A stretch of DNA of 61,651 nt from a virus (taxonomy: Duplodnaviria; Caudoviricetes), in the IMG/VR virus record IMGVR_UViG_3300044448_003018, positions 1 through 61,651 of that record. One strand, 5' to 3'. The notes beneath the pieces are model-generated. The model did not search any database, was not told where the DNA came from, and saw only the letters and a program-made list of their open reading frames with translations. This document shows positions 16,305-54,057 of the stretch, piece by piece. Each line of letters opens with the position of its first letter. Position 1 is the first letter of the stretch. The position numbers and the translations under genes were made by a program.

Positions 16305-16741
16305 CTTTGCTTGTCGTTGTTTACGTTATAAATGGCTTTTGTCATAACTTTGTCAGTATATGAATCACCATTAATTATTTTATTACGCCTACCAGTATTT
16401 ATATCTTCCTCGCCTAGCATTATTCTATATATTCTACTTATTAATTGCTTACCTTTGAAAGATACTTTATATATATGGTATTTTTGAGTGGATCTGTTTC
16501 TATGTCTCCATACAACTATCCAACCTTCTTTTAGCAGCCTGTTCCATCTGCGATTATCCCAACTGTATGAGTATACACCCATTTCAAAATCTTTTTTAGT
16601 AAAAAAATCTATACAGTCAAGATATATTAAAAGTTCTAGATCTGCATCATTTAAATTGTTGTTTTTACAAGCCCATTTTCTTATGATGCGATAGTGCTTC
16701 ATTAGGTTTAGTTCTCTAATGTCACTAGCATCTAGTCTCAT
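16301..16741 (-). CDS. Winged-helix (MarR-like) DNA-binding protein
   Basis: LNDADLELLIYL...RLLKEGWI...YKVSFKGK pattern. Confidence 0.55.
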   Translation of the reverse strand: MRLDASDIRELNLMKHYRIIRKWACKNNNLNDADLELLIYLDCIDFFTKKDFEMGVYSYSWDNRRWNRLLKEGWIVVWRHRNRSTQKYHIYKVSFKGKQLISRIYRIMLGEEDINTGRRNKIINGDSYTDKVMTKAIYNVNNDKQR

Positions 16742-16998
16742 ACTACAACGACAACGTCTGCAGATTTAATTACGTGATATGAATTATCACCAACTTCAAT
16801 TTTATGACCAGCATGACGATCAAAATATATAGTATCAGTTTCTTTGACACCAGCTACTTCTGCTCCAACAGACACTACATCTGCTTTTACATATCGTATA
16901 TCTTCACGTTGGTTTTCTGCAAGAAGTAAACCACCTTTCGTTTTGGTGGTTCCTTCTTTAATTTTGTTTATTATTAAGTTTCTACCTATTGCCTTCAT
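16738..16998 (-). CDS. groES: Co-chaperonin GroES
   Basis: TKGGLLL mobile loop, VVSVG, 86 aa, adjacent to groEL. Confidence 0.9.
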   Translation of the reverse strand: MKAIGRNLIINKIKEGTTKTKGGLLLAENQREDIRYVKADVVSVGAEVAGVKETDTIYFDRHAGHKIEVGDNSYHVIKSADVVVVV

Positions 16999-18538
16999 CT
17001 ATTCTTAAATTATTGATTACACAATCAGTAGACAATATTGTTGTTGCTACAGAAGCTGCATTTTGAAGAGCGCTCTTGGTGACAAGTAGTGGATCTATAA
17101 TACCTGACTTGATCATATTTACCATTTTTCCTGTAACCACATTGTAGCCTTGTCCTTTTCTAACGGGTGTTTCTACGTTGTCAACACCTGCATTTTCAAG
17201 TATTGTTTTATAAGGTGCTTTAATAGCTTCTAGTAAAACTGTTTCACCAATAGACTTAGCATTAATATTTGTAGCAGCGTTTAATAGAGCAATACCACCA
17301 CCAGGAACAATCCCTTCTTTAATAGCAGCTTTAGTAGCGCAGATAGCATCTTCAACTCTATCTGTCTTTTCTTTTAATTCTATTTCTGAATTAGCACCTA
17401 CTTTTACAATAGCTATTTTAGCTGATAGCATTGCTAATCTTTTTTCAAGTTTAACAAGTTTGTTTGGATTTTTTTCTTCTAAAAGTTTTTCTTTTATATC
17501 CTGTATAACCTTATTAATTTCTTCTGTGCTTTCGTTTATTTGCAATATTGTGTCTTCATGTGATGTTACACTTTTCAAGCATGTACCTAAATGATCTGGC
17601 TGTATCATATTCATGTCATCACCTAGATCTTCATTTATAATGGTAGCACCAGTAAGCATAGATAAATCTTGTAGCATTTGCTGTTTGTTTATACCGTACA
17701 TAGGCGCGTCAATCACATTGACTTTAATGTTACCTTTTGTTTTATTCATAGCTAGAGCTGATAAAACACCTTGTTCTAAGTCGCCTATAATAAGCAAAGG
17801 TTTATTGTTTTTTATTACATACTCTAGCACAGACTGTATCTGTCTGATAGTATCTACTGGTGATTCTAATAATAAAACAAGAGGTTTTTCTAATTCTGCA
17901 GTCTTACTAGCTTTGTTAGTAATAAAATGAGAATTTTTTAGCCCTTTTTCATATTGAACACCATCAACAACCTCTACACATGTTTTACCATCTGATGAGG
18001 TTTCCATCATAACAACGCCTGTGTTGTCAACTGCTCTGAAAGCATCTGCTATTATTTTACCAAGTGCAGGTTCGTTGTTAGTCGATATTGTAGCTATTTG
18101 ATCTATCATTTGACCTTTTACATCAACTGATAATGATTTTAAATACTTAACTACTTTTTTAACTGATTCGTTAATACCGTCTTTTAACTCTCTTGAGTTT
18201 GTTTTATCTACTACTTTATAAGCTTCGAGTAATATAGCATGTGCTAATACTGTAGCTGTTGTAGTTCCATCTCCTGCTTCTTGTACGGTTTTACGTGCTG
18301 CTTCTTTTAAAAGCGTTGCACCCATGTTTTCCACTGGATCTCGCAGTATTATTGAATCTGCGACTGTTACACCATCTTTTGTGATTATTGGTCTTCCAGT
18401 ATGATCTTCTAACATAACGCATTTGCCGCTAGCTCCGAGTGTAGAGCTAACAGCGTGCGTTAATTTTTCAATTCCTTTAAATACATTATCTCTGGCTTGG
18501 TCACCAAAGTTAAGATTCTTGACTATTAAGTCTGACAT
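16982..18538 (-). CDS. groEL: Chaperonin GroEL
   Basis: [33 protein letters not shown]; lacks the GGM tail. Confidence 0.97.
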
Positions 18539-19496: not shown

Positions 19497-19742
19497 TTAA
19501 TTTTTTTCTACTCTGTTTGTTTCTGGATTATAAGTATGTGTATGAGGTGTAGTACCGGCTCTATCGTGAGCACGCTCTCCAGCTGTCATTGTATTTCTTT
19601 TCTGACCTTCTGCTGTTAGTGTACCATCTGGGTTCATATGCCCGCGTTTTTTTAATAATGCATAGGCAAAACCTTTATCACCTACTTGAGCTATCAATCT
19701 TTTTACTAATTGATTACGACCCATGAACTTTTGTGTCTCCAT
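19497..19742 (-). CDS. Hypothetical protein
   Basis: 81 aa, first gene of the leftward arm. Confidence 0.7.
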   Translation of the reverse strand: METQKFMGRNQLVKRLIAQVGDKGFAYALLKKRGHMNPDGTLTAEGQKRNTMTAGERAHDRAGTTPHTHTYNPETNRVEKN

Positions 19743-19752
19743 ATATCTATAT

Positions 19753-19780
19753 ATACTTACAGATAAAGTGAAAAACTTAC
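19753..19780 (-). promoter_or_regulatory. Putative middle/late promoter GTAAGT-N14-GTAAGTAT
   Basis: Copy of the repeated bipartite motif at the head of the leftward arm. Confidence 0.55.
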
Positions 19781-19785
19781 AAAAC

Positions 19786-19830
19786 GTGACAATAGCCTGT
19801 TACTTATATACCTTATAAGGCTTATGTCAC
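19786..19830. promoter_or_regulatory. Palindromic site A: GTGACAATAGCC-N21-GGCTTATGTCAC
   Basis: Imperfect inverted repeat; second copy with identical spacing at 26431-26475. Confidence 0.7.
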
Positions 19831-20001
19831 ACTTTTTTTAAAAGGATAGCTTATATCGAGTTGTGGTGTTCAACTATCGTGCCAAACTTTATTTTTTTAT
19901 GTAAAATTAACATATTTTAACAGGGCCCACCTTGTTTTTTATACATTTTATTATATTTTTTACATTTTTATATAATTATATATAATATTTTATATTTTTT
20001 T

Positions 20002-20033
20002 TACAAACAAAACACAATACATATTGGATAATA
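20002..20033 (+). promoter_or_regulatory. Early promoter-like motif copy 1 (TACAAAYAAA...GGATAATA)
   Basis: TACAAA and GGATAATA start 24 bp apart in all five copies. Confidence 0.7.
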
Positions 20034-20081
20034 ATAATGTAAATACTTAATAACTAATAATAATAAATAAATAACTTAACT

Positions 20082-20309
20082 ATGCAAAATTTAATTTCAA
20101 AACGCTTCGTAATTCGCAAATCACTTATTGGCAAAAATCAAATCATTGAATGCACTTTCAAAAGTGGCAAAACTTTCAAGTACAATCATGACAAAGTGTA
20201 CAATATAATGCAAAATAAACTACAAAATATGCCTTGCTTTATTAAATACAAATCTTACACTTCATCAACAAGTGTACCAGTAATTCTTCGTGACAAAGTA
20301 GTATTATAA
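20082..20309 (+). CDS. Early hypothetical protein
   Basis: 75 aa, aactATG start after motif copy 1. Confidence 0.75.
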   Translation: MQNLISKRFVIRKSLIGKNQIIECTFKSGKTFKYNHDKVYNIMQNKLQNMPCFIKYKSYTSSTSVPVILRDKVVL

Positions 20310-20490
20310 TTACTACTTGTCATGACATACTGTCACATTTCGTGCAAGACATTTACTATAATCTAAACTAATAAACAATTATACACTTATAAATAATACT
20401 TATATGAGAACATTCATACACACTATTGTATTCAAAATCAAGTCATTACCAATAAAAGTTGGAAGATTCAGTGACTTCTTATAATGGAAT

Positions 20491-20522
20491 TACAAACAAA
20501 CTACAATTATCTTTGGATAATA
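20491..20522 (+). promoter_or_regulatory. Early promoter-like motif copy 2
   Basis: TACAAACAAACTACAATTATCTTTGGATAATA. Confidence 0.7.
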
Positions 20523-20544
20523 TAATAAAATAAACTAAATAACT

Positions 20545-20745
20545 ATGCACTCTTTACAACAATTAAATTCTATTTATACAATTATTAACAATAATAATTT
20601 AAACATTCAAACACCTACTACAAAACAATTATCAACCTTTATTAAATATTCATCACTAAATATTAATAAAAATATAACTACTGAGCAAAAACTTACATTA
20701 TATTACCTTGACCAACTATTTAATATATCATCTTTAATAAAATAA
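20545..20745 (+). CDS. Early hypothetical protein
   Basis: 66 aa, aactATG start. Confidence 0.55.
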   Translation: MHSLQQLNSIYTIINNNNLNIQTPTTKQLSTFIKYSSLNINKNITTEQKLTLYYLDQLFNISSLIK

Positions 20746-20767
20746 TAACTAATAAAACTAAACAACT

Positions 20768-21019
20768 ATGCAACACAGAAATATACCTTATGAATATCGT
20801 GAGTGGACATATGAAGGCACTAAATGCTCTGCATACACTTGCAAATACTTCAACTTCTATCCTTATCACATTATGTCTTTCTCTACAAATACAGAACAAG
20901 ATATGATCACTCAAATTGATGAGTACGTAGATAACCGTGAAGTATACAAAATCAAAAGAGACTTGTCTACTAATGCTGCAAGTGAATTCTATAAAACATT
21001 AACTTATAAAGGTGATTAA
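20768..21019 (+). CDS. Early hypothetical protein
   Basis: 83 aa, aactATG start. Confidence 0.7.
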   Translation: MQHRNIPYEYREWTYEGTKCSAYTCKYFNFYPYHIMSFSTNTEQDMITQIDEYVDNREVYKIKRDLSTNAASEFYKTLTYKGD

Positions 21020-21136
21020 CTATGCAATTTATACAAATAACTAATAATAAAGAGATAGATATGACTTCTCTTATACTAAAACAAATGAGTGGCGAGATCA
21101 CTCGTGATGAAGTCTTAAAAATAATTAAAGAAAACT

Positions 21137-21343
21137 ATGAAAAGAAATAAACTACTAACTATTGCAGCAGTGTTTTTTACTGCAGTATACTTAATATTTA
21201 TGTATAATAACTTACAGAATAATAAAGTAAGTAAGAATTATGAAGTATGGTATACAGAACAAGGTGATATTCTTGGTTATAATGTGCAAATAATGCACGA
21301 TGGTGAACTAATAACTTATTTTATTGAAAATGAAAAGAAGTAA
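21137..21343 (+). CDS. Early small membrane protein
   Basis: 68 aa, N-terminal hydrophobic helix. Confidence 0.6.
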   Translation: MKRNKLLTIAAVFFTAVYLIFMYNNLQNNKVSKNYEVWYTEQGDILGYNVQIMHDGELITYFIENEKK

Positions 21344-21452
21344 AAAAAGAAAGTTTTCACATCACAAACTACTTCAAGTACAAATAAAAATGCTTGAACA
21401 AGAGTACTATGATCGACTTAACTCTGAATTACCTCAATGGCAACAAGAGCTT

Positions 21453-21484
21453 TACAAATAAAATACAATTACTATTGGATAATA
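21453..21484 (+). promoter_or_regulatory. Early promoter-like motif copy 3
   Basis: TACAAATAAAATACAATTACTATTGGATAATA. Confidence 0.7.
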
Positions 21485-21499
21485 TAATAAAATAAAACT

Positions 21500-21676
21500 A
21501 TGCAAAAAATAAAATTCCTACCAAACAATCAAATTTTACTTAACAACCAAATTTATCAAGGTTATACTATAGGTGAACTACCAAATACTTTCGGTTTTAT
21601 CTACAATCAAGATAAAGATCAAGACGGTATTAGCGAATACTTTAACTACAAAGGTCTAACTTATGTACGTAAGTAA
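21500..21676 (+). CDS. Early hypothetical protein, 58 aa (MQKIKFLPNNQ...)
   Basis: aactATG start right after motif copy 3; not in the ORF track. Confidence 0.65.
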   Translation: MQKIKFLPNNQILLNNQIYQGYTIGELPNTFGFIYNQDKDQDGISEYFNYKGLTYVRK

Positions 21677-21914
21677 TATGCGCGAGTTGCTAATCTATGC
21701 AGAGCAACAAAAGAAATTACGTGCAAGCGAGCATAGGCGCAAGCACGCCCACGATGGTTTGTGCAGTGGACTGAGCGATGTCGAGTACAATCGAGTACGA
21801 GTCAGACAGAAATCTACCTTTTCAAAGGCTAGAAAGTTCACTCACAACCGTATGTGGCGAGATAACACTAAGAAATTTACAGTAGAACAATTAAAATTAA
21901 TAAAAACACTATGA
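21663..21914 (+). CDS. Early hypothetical basic protein
   Basis: 83 aa, overlaps neighbours. Confidence 0.6.
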   Translation: MYVSNMRELLIYAEQQKKLRASEHRRKHAHDGLCSGLSDVEYNRVRVRQKSTFSKARKFTHNRMWRDNTKKFTVEQLKLIKTL

Positions 21915-22402
21915 CAAATTATCAACTTGAGCAATTTATGCTCGAAGAACAGTTCGTAAAGCGTCTGCTTATCGACTACAATATCAGAGAAGTAACAACA
22001 CGGCGTCAAGCTAAAAACGGTACTCGCGAGTTTGAGTTTCCTGTACCTTGTTATACTAAAGAAAGACTTAAGTGGTTTGAAGAACGTAATAAACAGCAAA
22101 GTCTTCAATTAACACATAGTAGATCGTGGTTTCCAAACTCTAAATTAAAAGACTTACCAAGATTAAGGCTAGCTTGTTTCAAATCAGGTTATGTACGTAA
22201 GCAAAACGGTCAATGTCGAGCGTATCAAATAAATCCTACATTTACTCAAAATCAAAGATATGTATGGATGAGACAAGGTGAATTTACTGAAAGCTCAGAG
22301 TTATATACACAAGAGTATACAACTAAAGCTCGAGCACGTATAACTTCACCACTTGTACGATTAAACTTTATGTTAAAGTATTACCTTAAAAACTATGCGT
22401 GA
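21911..22402 (+). CDS. Early hypothetical protein
   Basis: 163 aa. Confidence 0.75.
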   Translation: MTNYQLEQFMLEEQFVKRLLIDYNIREVTTRRQAKNGTREFEFPVPCYTKERLKWFEERNKQQSLQLTHSRSWFPNSKLKDLPRLRLACFKSGYVRKQNGQCRAYQINPTFTQNQRYVWMRQGEFTESSELYTQEYTTKARARITSPLVRLNFMLKYYLKNYA

Positions 22403-22519
22403 AAGAGCTATAAAAACAATACTAGATCTTACTGACAAGTATTCTAGACAAGAATTAGAATCAATAAAAGATACACTAGAATTAGTAGCACTTAGCTACG
22501 ACGTTAAAAAAATACTATT

Positions 22520-22714
22520 ATGAGTAAAATGAAAGAAATAGATCTTATAGCGCAAGGCGTGGCAGATCACTGTAAAGAAATAATGTATGACACTGTAGAG
22601 TGGCAGATAGCAAATCAACCTGTTGACGGCGATGACTATAACAATCTACACAGTTATGTAATGAGTAAAGCAATAGAATATCTTTACAAACAAAATACAA
22701 ACACTGTTGGATAA
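22520..22714 (+). CDS. Early hypothetical protein
   Basis: 64 aa. Confidence 0.65.
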   Translation: MSKMKEIDLIAQGVADHCKEIMYDTVEWQIANQPVDGDDYNNLHSYVMSKAIEYLYKQNTNTVG

Positions 22715-22716
22715 TA
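22685..22716 (+). promoter_or_regulatory. Early promoter-like motif copy 4
   Basis: TACAAACAAAATACAAACACTGTTGGATAATA. Confidence 0.7.
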
Positions 22717-22743
22717 TATATGTAACAAATAAAATAAATAACT

Positions 22744-22932
22744 ATGTATTGTAAATGTGGCACTACTGTGCACCCTGTGAGATTAAACCTAGGTTATAAA
22801 ACTTGTGTTCAATGTTCAACTACTAAAACATATTCGTATGTTCCTATTATCGAGCACAAAACAGGTAATACAATACAAATTGTCAGTCAAGAAGTAAGTG
22901 CATCAGTGCACAGAGCTTGGCGACGTAAATAG
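22744..22932 (+). CDS. Small zinc-finger protein (DksA/TraR C4-like)
   Basis: CKC...HPVRL...TCVQC. Confidence 0.55.
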   Translation: MYCKCGTTVHPVRLNLGYKTCVQCSTTKTYSYVPIIEHKTGNTIQIVSQEVSASVHRAWRRK

Positions 22933-22953
22933 CTAGACGAGTAGCTTAATTAG

Positions 22954-23092
22954 GATTTAGGTGGGCGAATGCTGTAAAGATACCACGACAAATGGTACCT
23001 AAATCACATAAGTGAATAGCTAGCAAATAGCTACATGATTAAAGGCGTAATTCCTTAGCGGGATGCGAAAAACGGCTCGATGATTGTAGCTA
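22954..23092 (+). ncRNA. Putative structured non-coding RNA(s)
   Basis: GC-enriched intergenic region with closing helices GATTTAGGT/ACCTAAATC (22954-23005) and TAGCTACA/TGTAGCTA (23028-23092). Confidence 0.45.
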
Positions 23093-23094
23093 AT

Positions 23095-23217
23095 GGGCGT
23101 GAAATGGTTAGTATCACCTAACAGGTAAATCGCGGTCTTGGCTTCCTTGAGGTATCAGTTGTACAAAGCCACGCGTAGTGACAGTGATAAACGCAGGTTC
23201 GATTCCTGCCACGTCCA
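23095..23217 (+). ncRNA. Mini tmRNA-like RNA (tRNA-Ala-like domain, no evident tag domain)
   Basis: Acceptor GGGCGTG/CACGTCC with G3·U70 and discriminator A; stemless D-loop AAATGGTTAG; helix TATCAC/GTGATA; AAC linker; T arm GCAGG-TTCGATT-CCTGC. Confidence 0.75.
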
Positions 23218-23231
23218 CTAAATTATAAATT

Positions 23232-23480
23232 ATGGAAAAATGTAACGGATGGACTAACTACGCTACGTGGCGTATTAATTTAGAAATACTATCAGATATG
23301 GAATTTGAAGATCAAGTTTCTGCAGATTATTTAGAAGATTTAGTAGAAGACTGCGTATTTACTAATGCAGTAGTAAAAGATTGTTTAGCGGCAGATTACG
23401 CTAGAGCTTTTATTGCACAAGTAAATTTTCATGAAATAGCTGAAAGTATTAATATAGAATTACAAACAAATTACGAATAA
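23232..23480 (+). CDS. Conserved phage protein (NGWTNYATW family)
   Basis: 82 aa; NGWTNYATW...VNFHEIAE. Confidence 0.75.
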   Translation: MEKCNGWTNYATWRINLEILSDMEFEDQVSADYLEDLVEDCVFTNAVVKDCLAADYARAFIAQVNFHEIAESINIELQTNYE

Positions 23481-23492
23481 TAACGGATAATA
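23461..23492 (+). promoter_or_regulatory. Early promoter-like motif copy 5
   Basis: TACAAACAAATTACGAATAATAACGGATAATA. Confidence 0.7.
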
Positions 23493-23502
23493 TAATAAAA
23501 TT

Positions 23503-23751
23503 ATGACAAGACTTACACTTTATCAAAGACTAAAGCCCGAAGTTAAAGGCGCTTTACTATCAAACATGGTTGACTATGAAGGTACTATTACAAGTATTAT
23601 TGAAAAACTTAGCAACGAAACATTTTACTCTAATCTAACAATCAGTGACATTAGCTCATTATATACATTTTCAGATATAGAACTTATTAAAGTTTCTGCT
23701 TGGGATTTTAAATACGGTGATAACATTTTAATATCAAAAGATTATGAGTAA
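23503..23751 (+). CDS. Hypothetical protein
   Basis: 82 aa. Confidence 0.7.
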   Translation: MTRLTLYQRLKPEVKGALLSNMVDYEGTITSIIEKLSNETFYSNLTISDISSLYTFSDIELIKVSAWDFKYGDNILISKDYE

Positions 23752-23980
23752 TATAACATGGTGCGAATGGACAAAATCTGAAGCTAAACAACGAGCTCAG
23801 AATAAAGCTTTTGCTAAAATTAGCTTTATAGAACTAGAGAACAGAACTTACAAAAGAGATATTAAAGCAGGTGGTGACGGTAGATTATCAGTTGAACTAC
23901 TACAACGCTGCTTAAACTCTAACGAAAAAGAATTACTAACATGGAAATACATTGCTAAATTAATAGAAACAGATGAATAA
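23744..23980 (+). CDS. Hypothetical protein
   Basis: 78 aa, overlapping start/stop. Confidence 0.7.
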   Translation: MSNITWCEWTKSEAKQRAQNKAFAKISFIELENRTYKRDIKAGGDGRLSVELLQRCLNSNEKELLTWKYIAKLIETDE

Positions 23981-24422
23981 AATACTAACAGACGAACTAA
24001 TAGAACAAAAACTAAAAGAAAAATACGAGTACCCAGAAGATCCTGATCAAGATGTAATGCTTGAAATACTGCAAGATGAGTATGAATTTAAACTAACAGA
24101 TGAGTGGTCAAGAGATCCTGACTATTCTATATATGCAGAAACTACAGCCGACGGCTACGAAGTGTGGGTTGCTACTAATGGTGATGGTAGAAATGTGTGT
24201 ATCAACGAAGACGTACATTACTATGAAAGCGATTTATCTGATAGACTTAAAGATGCTATGTTTGATTATTGCGAGCTTATATACGTAGATGATCTAGAAG
24301 CTGACTATGTAGAAGATGCTATTATGTATGCATATCAAAATTTATATGAAGAAAAAGAAGAAGAAATTACAGATGAACTTATTGAACAAGGTTACGAGTG
24401 GCCTGAAAAAGTTGAAGTATAA
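23973..24422 (+). CDS. Highly acidic early protein (possible DNA mimic)
   Basis: 149 aa, extremely D/E-rich with many Tyr. Confidence 0.65.
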   Translation: MNKILTDELIEQKLKEKYEYPEDPDQDVMLEILQDEYEFKLTDEWSRDPDYSIYAETTADGYEVWVATNGDGRNVCINEDVHYYESDLSDRLKDAMFDYCELIYVDDLEADYVEDAIMYAYQNLYEEKEEEITDELIEQGYEWPEKVEV

Positions 24423-24652
24423 TGACAAATGAACAAATGGAAATAATAGCAGATCTAGTTGTACAAAAGCTAGTTAAGCTACAGCAAGATGGCGAAATAT
24501 ACTTAGGTTTAGCTCAAGAAGATTTAATATTATCTGAAATAGCTAGACTTACAACTCTATTGTCATCATACGAAGAAGACGAGCACTATGAAGCTGCCGC
24601 TATAATACTTAATAAAATAAAACATTTAGAAAACAAATTAAAAAACTTATGA
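24422..24652 (+). CDS. Hypothetical protein with UVR-like coiled-coil motif
   Basis: EDEHYEAAAIILNKI. Confidence 0.6.
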   Translation: MTNEQMEIIADLVVQKLVKLQQDGEIYLGLAQEDLILSEIARLTTLLSSYEEDEHYEAAAIILNKIKHLENKLKNL

Positions 24653-25476
24653 TAAAACCAATGCTTGCATACAAAGTCGGTAAAAAAGAAATCGACTGGT
24701 CTGCAAAGACTTTTATACAACCTAAGCTTGATGGTGTACGTTGTATATTTACTAAAGATGGTGCGTACTCACGTACTGGCAAAGAATTTAAAAACGTAGC
24801 TCATATTGAAGAAGATCTTAAAGATTTCTTTAATAAATATCCTAACACAGTACTTGACGGTGAGTTATATAATCACGATCTAAAGCACGATTTTGAAAAG
24901 ATCATATCTTTGGTCAGAAAACAAAAACCAACAGACGAGGATCGGTTTGAAGCTGGTAATCTTGTACAATATCACGTATATGATACTATATGGAACGACG
25001 TTACGTATGAAGATCGTTACAATTGGCTAAGAATGAACTTACCAATATACAAAACTATGACACTTATTGCTAATACCACAGTTGATACTATGGCTGAAGC
25101 TAAAATGTTGCACGACATACACTTAGCTCAAGGTTACGAAGGCTCTATGCTACGTACAAATGGCTTGTATGAGCAAAAACGATCTTACAACTTACAAAAG
25201 TTTAAAGACTTTAGTGACACTGAAGCTACAATTATTGGCTATGAAGCAGGTAAAGGCAAGTTTACAGGTCTTATTGGTAAATTCTTTATGCAAGATGATG
25301 ACGGCAATAAGTTTGGCTGTCCAATCGGTAAAGGTTACAACTTCAAAGATCGTAAGTTTATATTAGATAACATACATAACTATATCGGTGAGCGTGCTAC
25401 ATTTACATATTTCCAACGTACAAATGCAGGTAGCTACAGGCATCCGTTATTTAAAACATTACGTAATTATGAGTAA
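24649..25476 (+). CDS. ATP-dependent DNA ligase
   Basis: QPKLDGVR motif I, LDGELY, GYEGSMLR, LQKFK, C-terminal OB fold RHP. Confidence 0.95.
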   Translation: MIKPMLAYKVGKKEIDWSAKTFIQPKLDGVRCIFTKDGAYSRTGKEFKNVAHIEEDLKDFFNKYPNTVLDGELYNHDLKHDFEKIISLVRKQKPTDEDRFEAGNLVQYHVYDTIWNDVTYEDRYNWLRMNLPIYKTMTLIANTTVDTMAEAKMLHDIHLAQGYEGSMLRTNGLYEQKRSYNLQKFKDFSDTEATIIGYEAGKGKFTGLIGKFFMQDDDGNKFGCPIGKGYNFKDRKFILDNIHNYIGERATFTYFQRTNAGSYRHPLFKTLRNYE

Positions 25477-25551
25477 ATTAATATGGAAACTATATCATCA
25501 AAATATGATATCAGAAGAAGTAGTAGGAATATTATTAGATAAATTATACGA

Positions 25552-26067
25552 ATGAATATATTTTACTTACATAATGACCCATACAAAGCTGCAACATACT
25601 TTTATGATAAACATAAAGTTAAAATGATTTTAGAATCAGCTCAAATGCTTTGTACTGCACATAGATACTATGGAAATGAAGATGTGCCTTATAAAATAGC
25701 TCATCTAAATCACCCATCAACAATATGGTGCAGAGAAAATGACAAACAATACAGATGGTTATTTAATCATATGTTAGCTTTAGGTAGTGAGTATACTAAA
25801 CGCTATGGTAAAAAACATTTATCAATAGACAAATGCTTTGGTCCATTATCTTTTTTACCACCAAATATACCTAAGGATAAACAATTTACTGAACCACCAC
25901 AATGTATGCCTGATCAATATAAAGTTCCTGGTTGTAGCATTACAGCATATTGGAATTATTATGAAGGTGAAAAATACTTAGTGGCTAATAAAAACGAACA
26001 ATTAATAACTAGACCAGATGAAATTTTTAGCAACATTACTAGTAACAGCTACAATATACCATGCTGA
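25552..26067 (+). CDS. Pyrimidine-dimer DNA glycosylase (DenV-like)
   Basis: MNIFYL...DKHKVKMILESAQML...NHPSTIW...EYTKRYGKKH...PPQCMPDQY. Confidence 0.8.
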   Translation: MNIFYLHNDPYKAATYFYDKHKVKMILESAQMLCTAHRYYGNEDVPYKIAHLNHPSTIWCRENDKQYRWLFNHMLALGSEYTKRYGKKHLSIDKCFGPLSFLPPNIPKDKQFTEPPQCMPDQYKVPGCSITAYWNYYEGEKYLVANKNEQLITRPDEIFSNITSNSYNIPC

Positions 26068-26347
26068 CCCTGCACAATGTAATGCAGATTATTTAACAAC
26101 TGCATCACTTAAAACTATAAACAAATCTAATCCACAAGGACATCGTTGGATAGCGGTATCACGTGATTTAGAAAAATATGGTTTTACTTTTGGTACAAGA
26201 GTTTGTATCGAAGGTGCAGGATCATATGATGGTTATTGGACTGTTGAAGATCGCATGAACAAAAGATGGAAAAACCGTATAGACTTTCTTGTGAACAAAG
26301 AAATAAAAGGAGGTAAATGGTATAATGTAAAAATAACTATAGAATGA
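26018..26347 (+). CDS. 3D-domain (double-psi barrel) peptidoglycan-acting protein
   Basis: ATIY...IAVSRDL...FGTRV.IEG...VEDRM...RIDFL; hydrophobic N-terminus. Confidence 0.75.
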   Translation: MKFLATLLVTATIYHADPAQCNADYLTTASLKTINKSNPQGHRWIAVSRDLEKYGFTFGTRVCIEGAGSYDGYWTVEDRMNKRWKNRIDFLVNKEIKGGKWYNVKITIE

Positions 26348-26430
26348 GTAGAATAAAGACGTATAAGCATCTAATACAAACAGATGCATTTGGAATAAGA
26401 ACCAAAATTAAAAATTTTGTTAAACCAAGG

Positions 26431-26475
26431 GTGACAAAAGCCCGTAAAGATAATAAAGTAAGAGGCTAATGTCAC
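26431..26475. promoter_or_regulatory. Palindromic site B: GTGACAAAAGCC-N21-GGCTAATGTCAC
   Basis: Same arms and spacing as site A; overlaps the ATG at 26469. Confidence 0.7.
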
Positions 26476-27089
26476 ATGACAGAAACATAAAATGGCTTAA
26501 TGATAGACGTGTTATTTATAGGCGTAATCCTGTAAATGATGTGCCTAGCATTAAAACCGCATTGTATGAATACTATGAAGATGGTACGCACGAAGCTTAT
26601 CACTTGTTTAATAGCAAGGCTAAGATAACTACGTACCGTTCTTTAAAGTGGCATTTTTATGTTTTATATTATTTAAACGAGGACTGGCTATCTCCTTCTA
26701 GCATGACTTATATATTTAAGTTTATAGCAAATAAAGAAAATGGTTTTGTTACATTTTTCATTAGTGACAAAAAGCTAGAAGACATGATTGAAGATGTTTT
26801 AAATAACGGTGGCGAACCACCTGTTAACAAAAAACGTAAAATAATATTTAATGACTATAGCGGTTTAAAGCCTGAAGAAAAAATGAGTATAGTTGGTAAA
26901 TTAATTGGCAGATTAAAACAAGTTGATGAAGAAACTATTTATCAATGCATGCTAGATTTAAATGAGTTTGGTAAAAAAATAACGTGGAGCAAAGTAGCAG
27001 GCTTGCTTAACTGTTCTACTAGAACTATTCAACGCAACATTAATGATGCTTTAAAGCAAGAAAAACAAATATTAAATGAAGAAATATAA
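26469..27089 (+). CDS. C-terminal HTH DNA-binding protein (regulator or replication initiator)
   Basis: ITWSKVAGLLNCSTRTIQRNI helix-turn-helix. Confidence 0.7.
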   Translation: MSHDRNIKWLNDRRVIYRRNPVNDVPSIKTALYEYYEDGTHEAYHLFNSKAKITTYRSLKWHFYVLYYLNEDWLSPSSMTYIFKFIANKENGFVTFFISDKKLEDMIEDVLNNGGEPPVNKKRKIIFNDYSGLKPEEKMSIVGKLIGRLKQVDEETIYQCMLDLNEFGKKITWSKVAGLLNCSTRTIQRNINDALKQEKQILNEEI

Positions 27090-27831
27090 TGTACAAAACT
27101 ATATAAGGTATAAAGAAGATCTTAAAAAGTCTATGCCTGATGATAAGTTTTACGACTATTATAGTCGTGACGAGCTTATTGTAAAGTTTCTACCTCTTGT
27201 AGAAAATCTAGCACGTAAGTTTTCAACTACGCAACAAGCGTCAGGCGTTTTAAGCATTAATGATCTTATACAAATCGGCTCTGAAGGACTTATTAAAGCT
27301 GTAGACAAACTTGATTGGCTACAATTATCTGAGTCTGAAGACATCGAAAAAACATTAAAGTCGTTCTTTGCAAAACGAATAAAAGGCATTGTTAGAAGAC
27401 GTATAGATATGGCTCGTGGCGGTATGCGTATACCAGAACATAAGCTAAATGAAATACGTAAAAATCCTAAAGACAAAAAGATGGTTGAAATATTTTTCAA
27501 CAGTATGTTTTTAAGTATCGATGCGCAAGTAACTAATGATGATGAAGAAAATATGATGTATCAAATAGCGGATAAATCAGAGCCATATAACATACAAATA
27601 CTTAACGTTTATTTAAAAGGTTTAATGGAAAAATACCTTGATAAAAACGAATATGAAGTATTAAGACTTAGCTACGGTTTAGACTGTGATAAGTACCCAG
27701 CGCAGTGTATAGCTGATAAACTTGGCATTAAAGGATCAGGTGCTTATGTGCGTGTTTCTGAGCTAAAAAAGCAAGCTGTACAAAAGCTTATAGATAATGT
27801 TGATCACTCGCAAGTGCTTGACTTTCTGTAA
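27076..27831 (+). CDS. Phage RNA polymerase sigma-70-family factor
   Basis: Region 2 LPLVENLARKF...DLIQIGSEGLIKAVDK, MRIP; region 4 VLRLSYGL...IADKLG...RVSELKKQAVQKL. Confidence 0.88.
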   Translation: MKKYNVQNYIRYKEDLKKSMPDDKFYDYYSRDELIVKFLPLVENLARKFSTTQQASGVLSINDLIQIGSEGLIKAVDKLDWLQLSESEDIEKTLKSFFAKRIKGIVRRRIDMARGGMRIPEHKLNEIRKNPKDKKMVEIFFNSMFLSIDAQVTNDDEENMMYQIADKSEPYNIQILNVYLKGLMEKYLDKNEYEVLRLSYGLDCDKYPAQCIADKLGIKGSGAYVRVSELKKQAVQKLIDNVDHSQVLDFL

Positions 27832-41875: not shown

Positions 41876-42033
41876 TACTTTTTCTTTTTACCTCCACCAA
41901 ATTTACTTGGTCCACCAGCTTTGGTACATCTTACACCCCAACCTGAAGCATAAGCGCTAGGCCAAACTTTAAATTTTCTTTTAGCAGCAGCTTTACAAGC
42001 TGAACTTATTTTACCATATAAAGGACTACTCAT
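41875..42033 (-). CDS. Small basic protein, 52 aa (MSSPLYGK...VWPSAYASGW)
   Basis: Start at 42033 is more likely than 42057; overlaps the giant-gene stop. Confidence 0.65.
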   Translation of the reverse strand: MSSPLYGKISSACKAAAKRKFKVWPSAYASGWGVRCTKAGGPSKFGGGKKKK

Positions 42034-45000
42034 CTTTTTTCTTTTTTTGTAATTCAATTATTTTTTTAACTCTATTGTCTTCGTATCGTAATGCTTTTAT
42101 TTGTTTTTTAGTAAGACCTAAATCTAGTAGCATTTGCGTTTGCTCAGCTGTATTAGTATCACGCTTCATTACATCAATTTCTTGTTTTTTGCGCTCTGCT
42201 TCTGTAGGTTCTTTTGGTTTATCCCAACCACCATAATATGGTAATCCAACATCATAAGCAGAATAACCAAGAGCCATAGAAACTTTTTGCCACATTTGTG
42301 ATTGCTCACTCATTATACCTCTTATGTTATTTACTTTTTTAATAACACGATCAATTGGTATATTTGTAACTGCTGTTATAATTTGAGCACCGGCTAAATA
42401 AGCTGGATTATCAAGACTGAAACCTTTTTCTTTTATTTCTTTTCTATTCCAACTAAAGCTTTTTAAACCACCTACTATTTTTCTATATTTAGAACTAATA
42501 GCTGGTGAAAAACTTAAAGCTTCAATAGCGCTTTTTTCAAACTCAGGTGTTTTCTTTTCAGACTCTTCATATATCTTCATTAGAGTATTCTTAGCAGCAA
42601 CCATAGCAGCTCCTGCAATACCTAAACCTTTTAATTGAGAGTCAATCATGCCATTTGCAACTCTAGCTATTTTTTTATCTTTAGCTTTCTTTTTCTTTTC
42701 ATCTTCTTCTTCATCATCATCACCAAAACCTATAGCAAATAATGCTTGTTGTAAAGCATTAAATATTAAGTTTTGCATAACACCGTAATAAGCTATTCTA
42801 GCAATTTTAACTTTTGGATCACCTCTACCTGCTATTAAATCTTGTAAATCTCTTTTTTGTATTCTTACATACTGCATCGGTGTGTTAGCCCAGTTAAGTA
42901 TAACACGACCAGCTGCTGATGCTTGTTGCATACTAATTTTAGAAGGATCACTTGACTGCTGACTTTCTTCAGCTATATCTCTAAAATCATTAAAAGCTTT
43001 TTCTTGAGCTAGTTCTGGGCTCATGTCTTCTTTTAAATACTTTTTAATTCTGTTTCTATAAAAAGTAGCACCACCTGAAGCAATAGCAAAACTATCAGCG
43101 TATCTAGTAAATACAAAACCTTTACTAAGTAAATAAGCTATAGCTGCTTTTACTTTATTCTTAGAATCTTTTACAGCATCTGCTATTTCAGACTCACTTA
43201 CATTAATTTTAAGACCTTTACGTCTTTGTGTTAAGTAATCAGAGTTCATAAGTGTCATAAAGTCTGACCAATATTGCTTTTGATTTGCAAATGCTTGACC
43301 TGCCTTTATGATATTATTATCACCCCAATTTATAAAGTTTACAGCAGAAATTGTTTGAAGCAATGCAGATCTTGTATTTAAGAACATTACAGCACCAACA
43401 GAGTTATTAACCCAGTCAAGTATATTACTTGTAGCATCGTTATAACCAAGTCTATTTGTACCAGCCTTCATACGCTTTAAAGTATTCTCTAAAGCTTTAC
43501 GCCAACGAGTACCGTAAGCGGCTTCCATTTTATTTAAATTCTCTGGTGAAAATATAATTTCTACATTTTCTCTCCACTCTTGCTGATATTCTGCTCTGTT
43601 TACTTTATTTATACCACCAATAATATCTGTAGTTAAATTACCACCTAACCAATCTTTACCAGGTTCAGGATATGGTTTACCTTTTTGTAAAGTTATTAAT
43701 TGATCTGCAAAAACCCTAAGATCTGTATTGTCTTTTACAAACTTATTTAATTTTCTAATATCTGCTTTAGACAGCCCAGGTATTGACATACCTTGTTTAT
43801 TCCAAATATAAGTTCGAAGCGCATGTTGATACGTGAATTTACCAACACCTGTTTCTGTTTCTAATGTTTTAGGTAAACCCGGAAACTGCTCTTTTAAAGC
43901 CATGAAATCATTGGCAGCAGATATTTTAGCTTGTATTATAGAATCTTCAGCTCTATTGTATGGATCAATAAGGTTTGTTTTTAAGAACTCATACTGAGTT
44001 TCACCTTTTTTACCGTTACCTAATAATCTATATAATAAACCTTTGAAGTCTTCAGCTGATGAAGCCAATGTTAGCCAATCAAATCTACCTTTATCTCTAC
44101 CTACTGTTCTAGCTTTTGCAGCAGAAAAAGTTTTATATGATTCAATACCCGAAGAGTCTTGTATCATATCGTTGACTATAGTGTTAAAAGTATTTTCTTT
44201 ACTAGCTTTAGCTATTTGTACTTTGTACTTTACATCAACTTGATCTAAAACCTCTTTAACAGCTGCTACGTTTTTAACAGCGTCATCTGCAAAGTAAAAA
44301 TCATTATAACCCTCTGCGGCTTTACTGGCAACCCATCTACCTTTAGCACTTGCTTTGCCATCACCTAAACCTGTTATGTTACCTAAAGGTATATTTATAC
44401 CTAAAGCTTTCATAAATTCTTGTATAGGACCAGCTGCAGCTTGCGGTCTAGCAGTTAGTATAAATATATCTTCAGTTCCTCTAGCGTTAGCAATATTTTC
44501 TGCTACTTTAAATAAAGGTCCTTTTTTACCATCAATAACTTTTTCAAACTGACTAAAATCAAATGTAGCGCCTTGAGCTTCAAGATCACCAGCTTGTTCA
44601 GCAAATTGCGTAGCATTTATTTCTGTAACAGCTCCAGGTATTTGTTGTAATACTTTTATTTGTTGCTGATCTGTTAAGCTGTTAAAAGTTTGCTTATAGC
44701 TTGGTAGATTTTCAAATTCTTTTTTAAATAATCTTCTGGCTATTATATCTGCCATTTCACTACCACGTTCTAAAAAAGGCATTGTAACAATAACTTTACT
44801 CTTAGATCTAGCTAATGTATCATCAAAATCAAATATTCTAGCTTTTTTAATAGGGTTATTTAATTTCCTAGCAATTCTTGCAGCAGCATCTAAATTACCT
44901 AACTCTTTAACAACTTCTATAGAGTTATTAGAATTTTCACCTTCAATGCTAAGCTTGCCAGCCATTTCATTATTTATAGGAGCAACGCTGTTTTCTTTAG

Positions 45001-52377: not shown

Positions 52378-54057
52378 TTATTGATATCCATTGTTCATTA
52401 TATATTCTGTTCCTACTTGGAATAATTGTTTTTCACCGCCAAAATCAGTTGAATTATCTGTAGTCATTGTTACTACAGCATAAAATCCTTTTATACCTGT
52501 TATTTGCTCGCCAAAATGCACTTCATACTGTGTAGGTGTGCTTTTATTTTTTAAATTAGCATAATATTTATTTTCCTTACGATAAAAACCTGATCTAAAA
52601 ATATTACCAAGTAACTGCTGAGGGTATGAATTACCAAAAGAATCATAAGCCCCTTCATTATAACTATAAACATAGTTAACAGAATCGTTTGAAAAAGAAT
52701 AATTATTATTTAACTCATCTTCACCTGTTGGATCTGAAATAAAAGAATCTACAGCCCAACCATTATAGCCTTCATATTCTATAGTTTTAAAAGTTTTAGA
52801 GATACTAGCATTATTATTAAAAACAAATGTTATATTTGAATTATTATTTACTCCGTAAAATTTATTTCTAGCCAAGCTACTAAAAGATAAAGATGTATTA
52901 TCTGCTATTGTTTGAGTTTTATTTAAAATTAAATTAAGACCATTTATAGATAATACATATGTGCCTAGTAAAATATTTGGACCAGTTACAATATCTCCTT
53001 TACTTATATTTCCTACAACGTTATCTATAGTTACATTAGTACTGTTGTTTACAGCTCCATTAGTTAAAGCTTGAGATACTGTATTTTGTTTTGAATTATG
53101 AAGCCATAAACCACCGTCTTTAGTAGTATAAAATTTATTTCTAATACTAAACATTTGATCTGGTTTAAAACTAAAAAAGCTAGTCCAACCATTGATTTTT
53201 TCATCCCATGCAAGAGTTGTGTTTTCTGTATTAGTATCTGTTAAAGTTATATTTTTTTGAGTTGAAACAAAGTATTGACTAGTATATATATCCCAACCAC
53301 CTAATATTCTTCCCGGTGTTGAAGCTACTTTTATTCTATTAACTTCATCTCTAAAATAATCTTTCATACCTACAGAAGATATTTCATCTAATCCACTTTG
53401 TGAAAGTCTTAATATAACATTTTTATTAGCATCAGCAAAATATTTATTATAACCATAAACAGCAAAACTTTCAGGATTTTGACTAATACCATATTCGCCA
53501 GAATACGGTACTATTTGACCAATAACTAAATTTAATTGAGTTACTGGAGTTCCCTGTCCTTCTGCAGAATATATTGCATCTTTGTTTATTAATGCTTTAC
53601 TTACTTTTAACTCCTGAAATATATTTAAATTAGTATTTTCTGCATATAATTTTTGTATTCCTCCATTTGCTGGATCTAAACTTTTAGTTATTTCTTCTCC
53701 AACGCTAAAAACATTTGTATCATTTACACCTGTTCTAGAATTAAATATACCTGAGTATATTAAAGTATTTATTCTATTAGCTGAATTAGGTTCTTCTTCT
53801 ACTAAATATGCTTTAGCGCCATAATCTGTTGATGTATTATTAAAACCACCTCTAATTCTAGCTTCTTCTATAGCCCAATTAGTTGGATTGTTATCGTCTG
53901 GAGCTTGGGGTGTAGATCTAGGATAACCACCTATTTGCGGTGGTATGCCATAAGAACCATTCCACATAGCTATACCAGCATTACCTGGGGTATTATTGCT
54001 ATTAGTCTTTTTAAGAATAAAAGTATTAAAAAATTTTACTTCTACTGTTGCTGCCAT
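52378..54057 (-). CDS. Tail stabilisation/nozzle-type protein
   Basis: 559 aa, beta-propeller-like (YGISQNPESF, GWTSFFS). Confidence 0.6.
   Translation of the reverse strand: MAATVEVKFFNTFILKKTNSNNTPGNAGIAMWNGSYGIPPQIGGYPRSTPQAPDDNNPTNWAIEEARIRGGFNNTSTDYGAKAYLVEEEPNSANRINTLIYSGIFNSRTGVNDTNVFSVGEEITKSLDPANGGIQKLYAENTNLNIFQELKVSKALINKDAIYSAEGQGTPVTQLNLVIGQIVPYSGEYGISQNPESFAVYGYNKYFADANKNVILRLSQSGLDEISSVGMKDYFRDEVNRIKVASTPGRILGGWDIYTSQYFVSTQKNITLTDTNTENTTLAWDEKINGWTSFFSFKPDQMFSIRNKFYTTKDGGLWLHNSKQNTVSQALTNGAVNNSTNVTIDNVVGNISKGDIVTGPNILLGTYVLSINGLNLILNKTQTIADNTSLSFSSLARNKFYGVNNNSNITFVFNNNASISKTFKTIEYEGYNGWAVDSFISDPTGEDELNNNYSFSNDSVNYVYSYNEGAYDSFGNSYPQQLLGNIFRSGFYRKENKYYANLKNKSTPTQYEVHFGEQITGIKGFYAVVTMTTDNSTDFGGEKQLFQVGTEYIMNNGYQ

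Follow-up and report, generated by a model that had tools for sequence, protein, structure and literature searches.

In Bacillus phage phi29, the small DNA-binding protein p4 has its sites between the early promoters A2b and A2c and the late promoter A3. It binds inverted repeats with a long AT-rich spacer upstream of the late promoter, which brings about the early-to-late switch; the sites read CTTTTT-N15-AAAATG, and four of them lie within ~200 bp. In phage lambda, cI starts at or beside its own operator (OR/PRM), the PRM mRNA is leaderless and OL lies kilobases away. The lambda operators are compact 17-bp dyads in triplets, and a CI site centred near −42 activates the adjacent promoter. Mor and C of phage Mu and MotA of T4 bind at weak phage promoters, either over the −35 region or a short way upstream of it, leading to expression of the next temporal class. 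Phage sigma factors with their own promoter classes include gp28 and gp33/34 of SPO1 and gp36 of phiEco32.

The locus described here belongs to an uncultured marine phage with Flavobacteriaceae as probable hosts; the window, which is the whole stretch of DNA analysed, has 61,651 nucleotides. Two copies of a 45-bp element, 6.6 kb apart and mutually inverted, bracket the early region. Copy A (19786–19830, minus strand) faces the leftward structural genes, and copy B (26431–26475, plus strand) overlaps the start of the gene for a 206-aa helix-turn-helix (HTH) protein. Similar to the p4 sites, the element, known here from its sequence, combines inverted repeats with a long spacer in a divergent early/late control region. 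It differs in having two sites separated by 6.6 kb, of which one covers the start codon of the putative regulator itself, and in that the protein is larger, unrelated in sequence and carries its HTH at the end. As in lambda, the candidate regulator gene lies at its own predicted operator with a second site kilobases away, and copy B would give a leaderless HTH mRNA, as PRM does, if the core of the element is a promoter. Unlike in lambda, the half-sites are 34 bp apart around a directional core, and no lysogeny genes (no integrase) were found among the window ORFs scanned. The position of copy A relative to P_L, a putative leftward promoter, fits those of Mor, C and MotA, but there is no sequence or fold similarity to these proteins, a phage sigma factor is encoded next door, and we know of no instance of Mor, C or MotA on its own start codon. 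Similar to SPO1 and phiEco32, a sigma-70-family gene belongs to the operon headed by copy B; unlike the promoters of those sigma factors, the element does not track the sigma gene from one relative to the next. As a kind of system this is nothing unusual; what stands out is its geometry.

A gapped-pattern search for GTGACAnnAGCC-N21-GGCTnnTGTCAC returned exactly two matches in the ~61.5-kb genome, the same two sites that a preliminary description of this DNA had picked out, and none of 100 dinucleotide shuffles contained two or more (shuffle mean 0.00). With a position-weight matrix built from relatives, copy B scored 66.3 bits and copy A 65.3 bits; no other match in the window reached 8 bits, and five shuffles gave nothing at or above 0 bits. 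The arms of both copies are imperfect, with 10 of 12 positions paired and a central 2 × 2 mismatch. Copy B shares its last 7 nt with the beginning of the HTH ORF, which puts the ATG at 26469 inside the right half-site CTAATGTCAC and confirms the earlier placement of this site over the start codon; since an in-frame stop occurs at 26454, the ORF cannot start further upstream. The spacers had also been described as alike in inverted orientation. This is correct but weak inside the window alone: copy A read on the minus strand matches copy B at 34/45 positions (spacer 12/21), compared with 31/45 (spacer 9/21) when read on the plus strand, and it is the relatives that settle the orientation. Read toward the gene downstream of it, each site is a copy of one directional 45-bp element with the invariant pattern GACA..G..AGTA..C..TGTC. 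The shared orientation of the sites relative to the genes they precede had been overlooked.

Our alignment of 42 sites draws on the window and 25 loci, 26 genomes in total. Fourteen columns are invariant in all 42 sites: G3, A4, C5, A6, G10, A27, G28, T29, A30, C36, T40, G41, T42 and C43. The AGTA at positions 27–30 is invariant only when the A-type copies are read from the strand that encodes the leftward genes, and the relatives thereby fix the orientation of these sites. Two inverted 9-bp half-sites, TGACAwwAG and CTAwTGTCA, are centred 34 bp apart around the directional AGTA core. The length of the element varies from 44 to 46 bp; insertions and deletions are confined to the stretch separating the left half-site from AGTAA, and AGTAA-N4-CTAwTGTCAC is rigid. 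In 22/22 genomes both copies face the gene they precede. A/B pairs within one genome are slightly more alike than pairs between genomes (17.36 versus 16.02 of 28 variable columns), a value reached in 95 of 5000 permutations. The element is conserved as a DNA sequence, not as a structure.

The surroundings of copy A agree with the preliminary description, which had set it beside a leftward promoter motif and an AT-rich tract at the strand switch. P_L (TTGTAAG-N13-TGTAAGTATATA; 19750–19782, minus strand) is a conserved promoter-like stretch that starts 3 nt past the element and ends 8 nt short of the ATG at 19742. The TGTAAGTATATA box, with at most one mismatch, lies 22–26 nt past the element end in 11 of 22 genomes. 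In alignment A4, P_L is conserved in six HTH-positive and two HTH-less genomes, and the 45-bp element is present only in the six. The ATG opens an 81-aa gene (19497–19742, minus strand) with no family match, which heads a minus-strand block of ~44 kb running through GroES/GroEL, terminase, portal and virion genes. On the other side of copy A, a divergent intergenic tract (19831–20081) with 18.3% G+C (window, 33.0%) extends to the first rightward gene. It holds the first of five copies of an early promoter-like repeat, TTACAAACAAAATACAAT ... GGATAATATAAT (19990–23501, plus strand; starts at 19990, 20479, 21441, 22673 and 23449), each located inside the bracketed region just upstream of a plus-strand ORF. 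The search for this repeat gave six matches against 0.62 expected, five of them in the bracketed region, and the repeat was also found in the relative L013. T-runs follow site A on both strands, and a short hairpin (26367–26387) lies upstream of B in the window.

The HTH protein (26469–27089, plus strand) is a candidate cognate DNA-binding regulator from a virus-only family that carries no annotation: 396 representative proteins match it at E ≤ 0.001, and its atlas neighbours are all viral hypothetical proteins. None of the known HTH regulator families searched (TetR, sigma region 4, HTH_23, resolvase HTH_7) exceeded its family threshold for this ORF; the Pfam HTH_23 match is weak (residues 170–192, E 0.0042, 17.3 bits against a cutoff of 24.6), and TIGR02999 scored 15.8 against a cutoff of 126. 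There was no PHROG match, and a PDB profile search with the protein returned nothing relevant. An AlphaFold2 model (pLDDT 79.7) contains a C-terminal three-helix domain (149–205) resembling TetR-type DNA-binding domains, at Z scores of 5.2–6.6 that are within the chance range, making the likeness generic. Residues R185, T186 and R189 of the C-terminal helix-turn-helix are invariant, and the recognition helix is unchanged where the left half-site goes from GACA to GACG. The phage sigma gene (27076–27831, plus strand) begins within the HTH gene, whose last 14 nt it shares. Its product matches TIGR02937 over residues 31–238 (48.3 bits, cutoff 42.9), which places it in the sigma-70 family, as well as phrog_351 (E 1.5e-18), with FliA as the best solved relative (E 1.8e-05); Pfam Sigma70_r2 alone stays under its cutoff (20.8 versus 24). 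Aligned with each other by hhalign, the HTH protein and the sigma factor gave a probability of 1%.

The element and the HTH gene occur together in related uncultured phages. By eye, copy B was seen in 38/38 loci of a first set that have upstream DNA. In a second set, 74 HTH-positive loci had 70 nt or more of upstream sequence and were scored at a threshold of 20 bits, where random 102-nt windows reach at most −7.6 bits; copy B was present at the HTH start in 72 of them. The two exceptions, L074 and L103, keep an A-type copy in their records. In each of the 20 loci where the HTH gene is preceded by 9 kb or more of sequence, an inverted A-type copy lies 5.3–9.0 kb upstream of the gene, at the head of the leftward structural genes. 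Conversely, four of four records from relatives that have the sigma gene and lack the HTH gene gave no pattern match (two of these records are 97% and 100% complete); the control record G005 gave one match per strand. Score scans of the two near-complete HTH-less genomes gave best values of only 2.1 bits in the whole 62.5-kb record of G001 and only 1.9 bits in 68.5 of the 68.85 kb of G003, and the window sites reach 54.8 and 54.0 bits under the same split matrix. A profile of the HTH family found nothing in either genome (best E-value 0.084). Both genomes retain P_L, the first early gene, the ligase and the sigma gene, indicating that what is missing is the HTH gene plus two sites ~7 kb apart, not one deletion. 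Among the window ORFs missing from both, only the HTH gene is found in 40/40 loci of the HTH set; the next-best such ORF is found in 19/40. MW202828.1, a more distantly related genome whose terminase large subunit (TerL) is 63% identical, lacks the HTH gene and also lacks the element. In a quick sigma tree, the four HTH-less rows form two pairs in a part of the tree that lacks resolution, and, judged from these sequences, the joint loss of gene and element may represent perhaps just one or two evolutionary events.

We consider it somewhat more probable than not that the HTH protein has these two sites as its operator set. Together they would make up an accessory regulatory cassette, the sites acting in cis and the protein in trans, with the protein reading the element as double-stranded DNA by its sequence. 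Occupancy of copy B at the HTH start codon would control the operon of HTH, sigma, recombination and replication genes, amounting to autoregulation. At copy A, the protein would act on the conserved leftward promoter that lies 24 nt further on and heads the structural-gene block, turning leftward transcription either on or off. The right half-site of copy A would be centred near −43, provided that TGTAAGTATATA is a Bacteroidota-type −7 box. We infer the HTH protein as the binder, transcriptional regulation as the function and the direction of the effect, and likewise a role for the directional AGTAA core, which may be a promoter giving a leaderless HTH mRNA. The distance of 34 bp between half-site centres and the length of 44–46 bp fit a simple dimer poorly, and an AGTA core that is both invariant and directional is left unexplained by symmetric binding.

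A possible but doubtful alternative, compatible with control by the HTH protein, is that the element is itself a promoter. The left half-site would then be a −35/−33-like box and the AAGTAA core a −10/−7-like box, with the start at A38/A39, and the half-sites would form an operator over the −35 box and the start point; copy B would give an HTH mRNA with no leader or a 1-nt leader, and copy A would fire leftward through P_L. The constant orientation of both copies toward the downstream gene fits such a layout, as does the flexible spacing (±1) between left box and core together with the rigid core-to-right-end distance, the pattern expected for −35/−10 spacers. GTGACA-17-TAAAGT at B matches 9/12 in a sigma-70-type scan, the core TAAGTA is similar to the P_L box TAAGTATA, the hairpin lies ahead of B, and in L021–L026 the sequence continues to the element with no obvious separate intergenic stretch (by eye, with ORFs uncalled). 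However, the same scan of the region found 4 sites against 2.2 expected, not above chance, and did not call site A, and the probable host class uses a different consensus. Flavobacteriaceae promoters presumably read TTG / TAnnTTTG, of which the core matches only the first five positions. Third copies of the element in L013, L014 and G009 face no ORF, and the sigma gene is kept in the four HTH-less records that lack the element, so the element is not the general promoter of that sigma factor. It is less probable still, and in our view unlikely, that another factor common to these phages or their host reads the half-sites, with the HTH protein only an associate that might, for instance, contact the core or bend the 25-bp spacer to make a split operator usable. 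The candidates would be a small early protein or the phage sigma factor, through its region 4. When its arms are joined, the 45-bp element becomes the compact palindrome TGACA-N3-TGTCA, of which the early regions of two HTH-less genomes hold three and two copies, five in 131 kb against ~0.35 expected (~0.17 per genome), so a factor other than the HTH protein may read TGACA. Some of these palindromes adjoin early-promoter-like repeats. GTGACA also agrees at 5 of 6 positions with TTGACA, the box recognised by sigma region 4 in other bacteria, which would favour such a reader. Against it, the 40 HTH-positive loci, with only 3 compact palindromes in 639 kb, show no such enrichment, and the whole 45-bp element tracks the HTH gene, not the first early gene or the sigma gene; HTH-less genomes retain both of the latter.

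Very little probability attaches to a hairpin in RNA or single-stranded DNA, acting as a terminator or as a translational operator masking the start codon of the HTH gene. Copy B folds at −11.7 kcal/mol (z −5.06) with the AUG within its 3′ arm, copy A folds on the minus strand at −12.5 kcal/mol (z −2.66), and the T-runs flanking A would suit a terminator. The copies in relatives fold weakly, however (−4.3 to −8.5 kcal/mol, z −1.15 to −1.85), and the AGTA loop is better conserved than the inner stem. Pairing shows no covariation (87.9% of paired cells versus 88.3% in shuffles) and is broken by variable columns in 15/42 sites at 1–45, 12/42 at 11–35 and 14/42 at 12–34, indicating that the element is not a selected hairpin. 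Rfam gave no match, no terminator-like site was found at B, and no gene enters site A from either strand. The preliminary description had also raised recombination or inversion, for which the mutually inverted copies around the early region, and presumably the size and C-terminal HTH of the protein, reminiscent of small serine invertases, could speak. Inversion sites for the 6.6-kb early segment, or terminal inverted repeats of a mobile cassette, are nevertheless highly improbable: the enclosed genes are on the HTH-gene strand in 22/22 genomes, a single orientation, none of 71 ORFs matched resolvase, integrase or transposase families (13 and 58 ORFs, E ≤ 0.01 and 0.001), and fold searches with the HTH model, in a weak Z range, list no recombinase fold. 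HTH-less genomes keep homologous early genes between P_L and sigma with no sites, so the early region is not cargo; a reading as transposon ends found no support. To our knowledge, known crossover sites do not resemble the 21-bp asymmetric spacer. No better a chance is given to the earlier suggestions of a replication origin or initiator site, or of genome ends or pac/cos packaging signals. Site A does adjoin the 18% G+C tract, and cumulative GC skew, one of the checks proposed earlier, turns near 20–22 kb, but this turn coincides with the coding-strand switch. There are two single sites and no iteron arrays, HTH-less relatives keep the ERF, exonuclease, primase-helicase, terminase and portal genes with no site, and the assembly end repeat (1–126 = 61523–61648) is distant from both copies.

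Returning to the operator set of the HTH protein, the proposed link between sites and gene is supported in part, namely by their co-occurrence in relatives, the check that the preliminary description had put forward. Its early–late switch at A is likewise supported in part: the position directly upstream of P_L fits, and P_L itself is conserved with or without the HTH gene. Since the element occurs only in phages with the HTH regulator, the two sites are most likely binding sites of that regulator, through which it would time gene expression in these phages.

The window carries exactly two copies of a 45-bp site, at 19786–19830 (−, site A) and 26431–26475 (+, site B), where the preliminary description had located them. 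Their gapped pattern matches nowhere else in the window, and two matches arose in none of 100 shuffles. Similarly, a position-weight scan of the window returned the two copies only (66.3 and 65.3 bits), with nothing else reaching 8 bits. Site B indeed covers the start of the 206-aa helix-turn-helix (HTH) gene (26469–27089, +), whose ATG at 26469 lies inside the right arm. An in-frame stop at 26454 rules out an earlier start for this ORF, and the N-terminal residues encoded past the element (R5, N6, K8, L10 and D12) are invariant in 24 relatives, indicating that the ATG at 26469 is the true start.

To place the sites in an evolutionary context, 40 related viral contigs were fetched via the HTH protein. 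All 38 contigs with DNA upstream of the gene carry an element that ends 7 nt into the HTH ORF. A second copy on the opposite strand was present 5.3–9.0 kb upstream wherever the upstream flank reached at least 9 kb (20 of 20 loci), and also in one further locus (L017). Taken in the direction of the leftward genes, the upstream copies align gap-free to the B copies, and in this register the 42 sites share the invariant positions G3 A4 C5 A6, G10, A27 G28 T29 A30, C36 and T40 G41 T42 C43. Each copy thus points at the gene block that it precedes. The sites had been described as two palindromes; their positions and dyad hold, but they are really one directional element, the orientation of which had been missed.

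The element is an imperfect dyad, with 9-bp half-sites TGACAwwAG and CTAwTGTCA flanking an asymmetric core. Some copies measure 44 or 46 bp, and in these the indel always falls between the left half-site and AGTAA, and AGTAA-N4-CTAwTGTCAC is constant in length across the variants. Three loci (L098, L099 and L117) have an HTH start codon that the element does not cover, and the right half-site is conserved there too, so that its conservation is not a coding by-product. The architecture is unusual: 34 bp separate the half-sites, the core between them is directional, and one copy sits on the regulator's own start codon.

A second set of 80 loci, many of them contigs common to the first set, was fetched via the protein of the adjacent sigma gene (27076–27831, +). 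An HTH homologue lies just upstream of the sigma gene in 75 of them. At a call threshold of 20 bits (376 random windows gave no score above −7.6), the element was found at the HTH start in 72 of the 74 loci that have 70 nt or more of DNA upstream; the two loci without it (L074 and L103) keep an A-type copy ~6 kb upstream. In four loci (L082, L083, L107 and L118) the HTH gene is absent and the sigma gene directly follows the early genes. The whole records of these four (97%, 45%, 100% and 77% complete) yielded 0 matches to a degenerate element pattern, which gave one match per strand, 8.1 kb apart, in a control record. With a split matrix, the two near-complete HTH-less genomes reached at best 2.1 bits (G001, whole record scanned) and 1.9 bits (G003, 68.5 of 68.85 kb), compared with 54.8 and 54.0 bits for the window copies. 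A profile of the HTH family detected nothing in these two genomes (best E 0.084). Most genes are retained in both, among them GroEL, the ligase, the sigma gene and the first early gene. Among the window ORFs absent from both, only the HTH gene occurs in 40 of 40 loci of the HTH set; the runner-up occurs in 19 of 40. A more distant uncultured relative, MW202828.1, has neither the HTH gene nor the element. The element thus tracks the HTH gene and not the sigma gene. Co-conservation of sites and gene, suggested as a check in the preliminary description, is thereby supported (0 of 4 HTH-less records with the element). In a quick sigma tree the four HTH-less loci form two pairs in a poorly split region and may reflect a single loss; even one loss event comprised the HTH gene together with two sites about 7 kb apart. 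The feature is real, and comparison among relatives solidly supports its link to the HTH gene; its mechanism is inferred.

The AlphaFold2 model of the HTH protein (pLDDT 79.7) is rich in strands towards the N-terminus and helical in the middle, with a three-helix HTH at the C-terminus (residues 149–205). This domain aligned with TetR-type DNA-binding domains at Z 5.2–6.6 in VIA-align, which is within the range of chance; for the protein, VIA-align returned generic HTH and helical matches only, with Z at most 6.6. Querying the PDB with Foldseek gave nothing at E ≤ 0.001, and a sequence profile search of the PDB gave no useful match. No Pfam, PHROG or NCBIfam family scored above cutoff, and hhalign detected no kinship with the phage sigma factor encoded next door. 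The regulator belongs to an unannotated protein family, for which 396 representatives match at E ≤ 0.001; only viral proteins appear among its atlas neighbours. There is hardly any variation in the recognition helix (CSTRTIxRN), which is unchanged in the subgroup with a GACG left half-site, and no covariation between the helix and GACA/GACG was found. A homodimer prediction scored 0.00, which is uninformative either way.

Bases 1–126 of the window are an exact direct repeat of 61523–61648, indicating a complete, circularly closed (or terminally redundant) assembly of about 61.5 kb, which is classed as a virus record. The leftward gene block extends from 19742 across the end join to about 37.5 kb and encodes GroES, GroEL, terminase, portal, virion proteins and a 2851-aa ORF (42026–50581, −), which has no Pfam or PHROG match and is kept in relatives. 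The chaperonin genes (Cpn10, E 2.1e-12; Cpn60, E 7.3e-58; 16738–18538, −) lie within the first 3 kb of the block from the leftward promoter-like stretch and are likewise kept in relatives, including MW202828.1. A 559-aa protein (52378–54057, −) contains crAss-virus muzzle-protein domains (E 3.6e-10). The rightward block (20082 to about 37.6 kb) begins with small early ORFs, a ligase, a pyrimidine-dimer glycosylase, the HTH gene and the sigma factor, and continues with an ERF recombinase, an exonuclease, a primase-helicase, thymidylate synthase, MazG and ribonucleotide reductase. The terminase large subunit shares 43% identity with those of Flavobacterium, Cellulophaga, Tenacibaculum and Maribacter phages and 63% with that of MW202828.1, from which the host is probably a member of the Flavobacteriaceae. 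The terminase gives the only link to a cultured-phage collection, in which no near-identical DNA and no match to the HTH or sigma protein was found.

We favor the reading that the element forms the operator set of the HTH protein. In an alignment of the leftward side, TTGTAA-N15-TGTAAGTATATAT (19750–19782, −) just before the first leftward gene was common to six HTH-positive and two HTH-less genomes; the element was present only in the six HTH-positive ones, ending 2–3 nt before this stretch. We read the conserved stretch as a putative leftward promoter, PL. Bacteroidota promoters follow the pattern TTG / TAnnTTTG, to which the PL geometry TTG-N20-TAAGTATA is close. In 11 of 22 genomes, a TGTAAGTATATA box (at most 1 mismatch) follows the element at a distance of 22–26 nt; the remaining genomes are more diverged. 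Further copies of this box were not above chance (25 versus 21.9 expected). If PL is of the Bacteroidota type, element A would span about −84 to −40 with the centre of its right half-site near −43, an activator-like position, where repression would also be possible. Copy B leaves no space for a downstream promoter because it sits on the start codon, and a protein occupying it would control whether the HTH–sigma operon is expressed. The first 14 nt of the sigma gene, from its ATG, overlap the end of the HTH gene (27076–27089), which suggests translational coupling. In HTH-less relatives, the sigma gene instead follows a leader rich in A and a short inverted repeat, GGTACCAA..TTGGTA. Between the last early ORF and copy B (26367–26392 and 26412–26419), we also noted a hairpin with a 6-bp stem (GCATCT..AGATGC) and a TTTG-N19-AAATTTTG motif; the motif resembles the Bacteroidota promoter pattern and is conserved in close relatives only.

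Several other roles for a paired dyad were considered. If the element acted as an RNA hairpin, its arms should pair; paired cells amounted to 87.9% across the 42 sites versus 88.3% expected from shuffling, with no covariation, and variation in the stem columns mostly disrupts pairing, in 15, 12 and 14 of the 42 sites for three of the pairs. Moreover, the core in the would-be loop is more conserved than the inner stem. The window copies fold at −11.7 and −12.5 kcal/mol and those of relatives at only −4.3 to −8.5 kcal/mol. Neither Rfam (gathering and E-value thresholds) nor ARAGORN (tRNA, tmRNA) reported anything at the two sites. The alignment thus points to selection on the element as double-stranded sequence, not as a hairpin. 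The preliminary description had also proposed inversion sites, a replication origin or genome-end and packaging signals. All 22 genomes show one orientation and no recombinase family was found, which speaks against inversion, and ends of a transposon or mobile element are rejected because site-less genomes retain the early genes. An origin is disfavored by the lack of iterons, by a GC skew that tracks the coding strand and by site-less relatives with the same replication genes. A packaging role is likewise disfavored, as the assembly end repeat lies elsewhere and site-less relatives have the same packaging genes.

It is possible, though we are inclined to doubt it, that the element is in addition a promoter with an AGTAA core, which would be compatible with its serving as the HTH operator. 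The left half-site would then be the upstream box and TAAGTA the downstream box, with transcription starting at A38/A39; in copy B this is the A of the ATG, so that the HTH mRNA would be leaderless. Three traits are promoter-like: the AGTAA core has a direction, its distance to the right half-site is fixed, and the spacer on its left is flexible. A sigma-70-type scan scored 9 of 12 at B, but the total of that scan was not above chance and site A was uncalled. Some relatives have a third copy within the early region. Those in L013 (2160–2204, −, after the first early gene, in copy-A orientation), L014 (1639–1683, −, in the early region after the first early gene) and the related record G009 point leftward with no ORF ahead, and fit neither operator nor promoter neatly. 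The GC-rich stretch past the L013 copy has no significant fold (z 0.47). In L133 (7415–7460, +), the third copy has its GACG/GACA halves swapped relative to that genome's other copies. Compact dyads TGACA-N3-TGTCA, equivalent to the element arms minus the interior, occur 3 and 2 times in the early regions of the two near-complete HTH-less genomes (L125 at 11663, 11869 and 14089; L126 at 4244 and 8056), where about 0.17 per genome is expected. HTH-positive loci have only 3 in 639 kb, and the window has a single one at 20323 (20290–20336), after the first early gene. This excess suggests that another factor may read TGACA, and it makes us less sure that the half-sites are read directly by the HTH helix. 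Another possibility is that the 45-bp element derives from the compact dyad by splitting. An extended version, which we consider improbable, is a split operator-promoter acting with an HTH-bridged loop as a one-step long-range switch. Here the TGACA-N3-TGTCA dyad, which HTH-less sister phages would still use, would have been opened by about 30 bp bearing a directional promoter core, and the HTH protein would bridge the inverted copies in a 5–9 kb loop round the whole early region. In one step, early transcription would be shut, a leaderless HTH–sigma mRNA autoregulated and the leftward late promoter released, like the lambda OL–OR long-range switch, here in a lytic Bacteroidota phage.

The early region between the two copies has further features of its own. 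The repeat TTACAAACAAAATACAAT ... GGATAATATAAT (19990–20042, 20479–20531, 21441–21493, 22673–22725 and 23449–23501, +) is promoter-like, and each of these five copies lies just upstream of a rightward ORF. It gave 6 matches versus 0.62 expected. Relatives carry the repeat as well, and it matches neither the sigma-70 nor the Bacteroidota consensus closely. A tmRNA-like mini gene (23095–23220, +) lies in an ORF-free gap (22933–23231). Its match to Rfam RF00023 (32.9 bits, below the gathering score of 47; E 1.2e-11) covers the tRNA-like domain only, namely the acceptor stem and the T-arm GGUUCGAUUCC, and its halves are 66 nt apart versus about 306; ARAGORN did not call it. A similar T-arm occupies the corresponding position in HTH-less relatives.

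Regarding the operator reading, phi29 p4 acts at divergent early and late promoters, and lambda CI acts at OR/PRM with a distant OL. Together with Mu Mor/C, these are functionally the nearest systems. A phage regulator with a small operator set is familiar and not new biology in kind. To our knowledge, transcription control in marine Flavobacteriaceae phages is almost unstudied, and the portion of the literature that our search covered contained nothing on promoters, operators or sigma factors of Cellulophaga and Flavobacterium phages of this group. The HTH gene and its sites represent a candidate, self-contained regulatory cassette, with a virus-only HTH family of hundreds of metagenomic members, a precisely defined target of 45 bp at two places in the genome, and relatives missing the whole cassette that serve as natural knock-outs. 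The compact protein/site pair could become a genetic part for Bacteroidota, and the cassette would offer a handle on early, middle and late gene timing in abundant uncultured phages.
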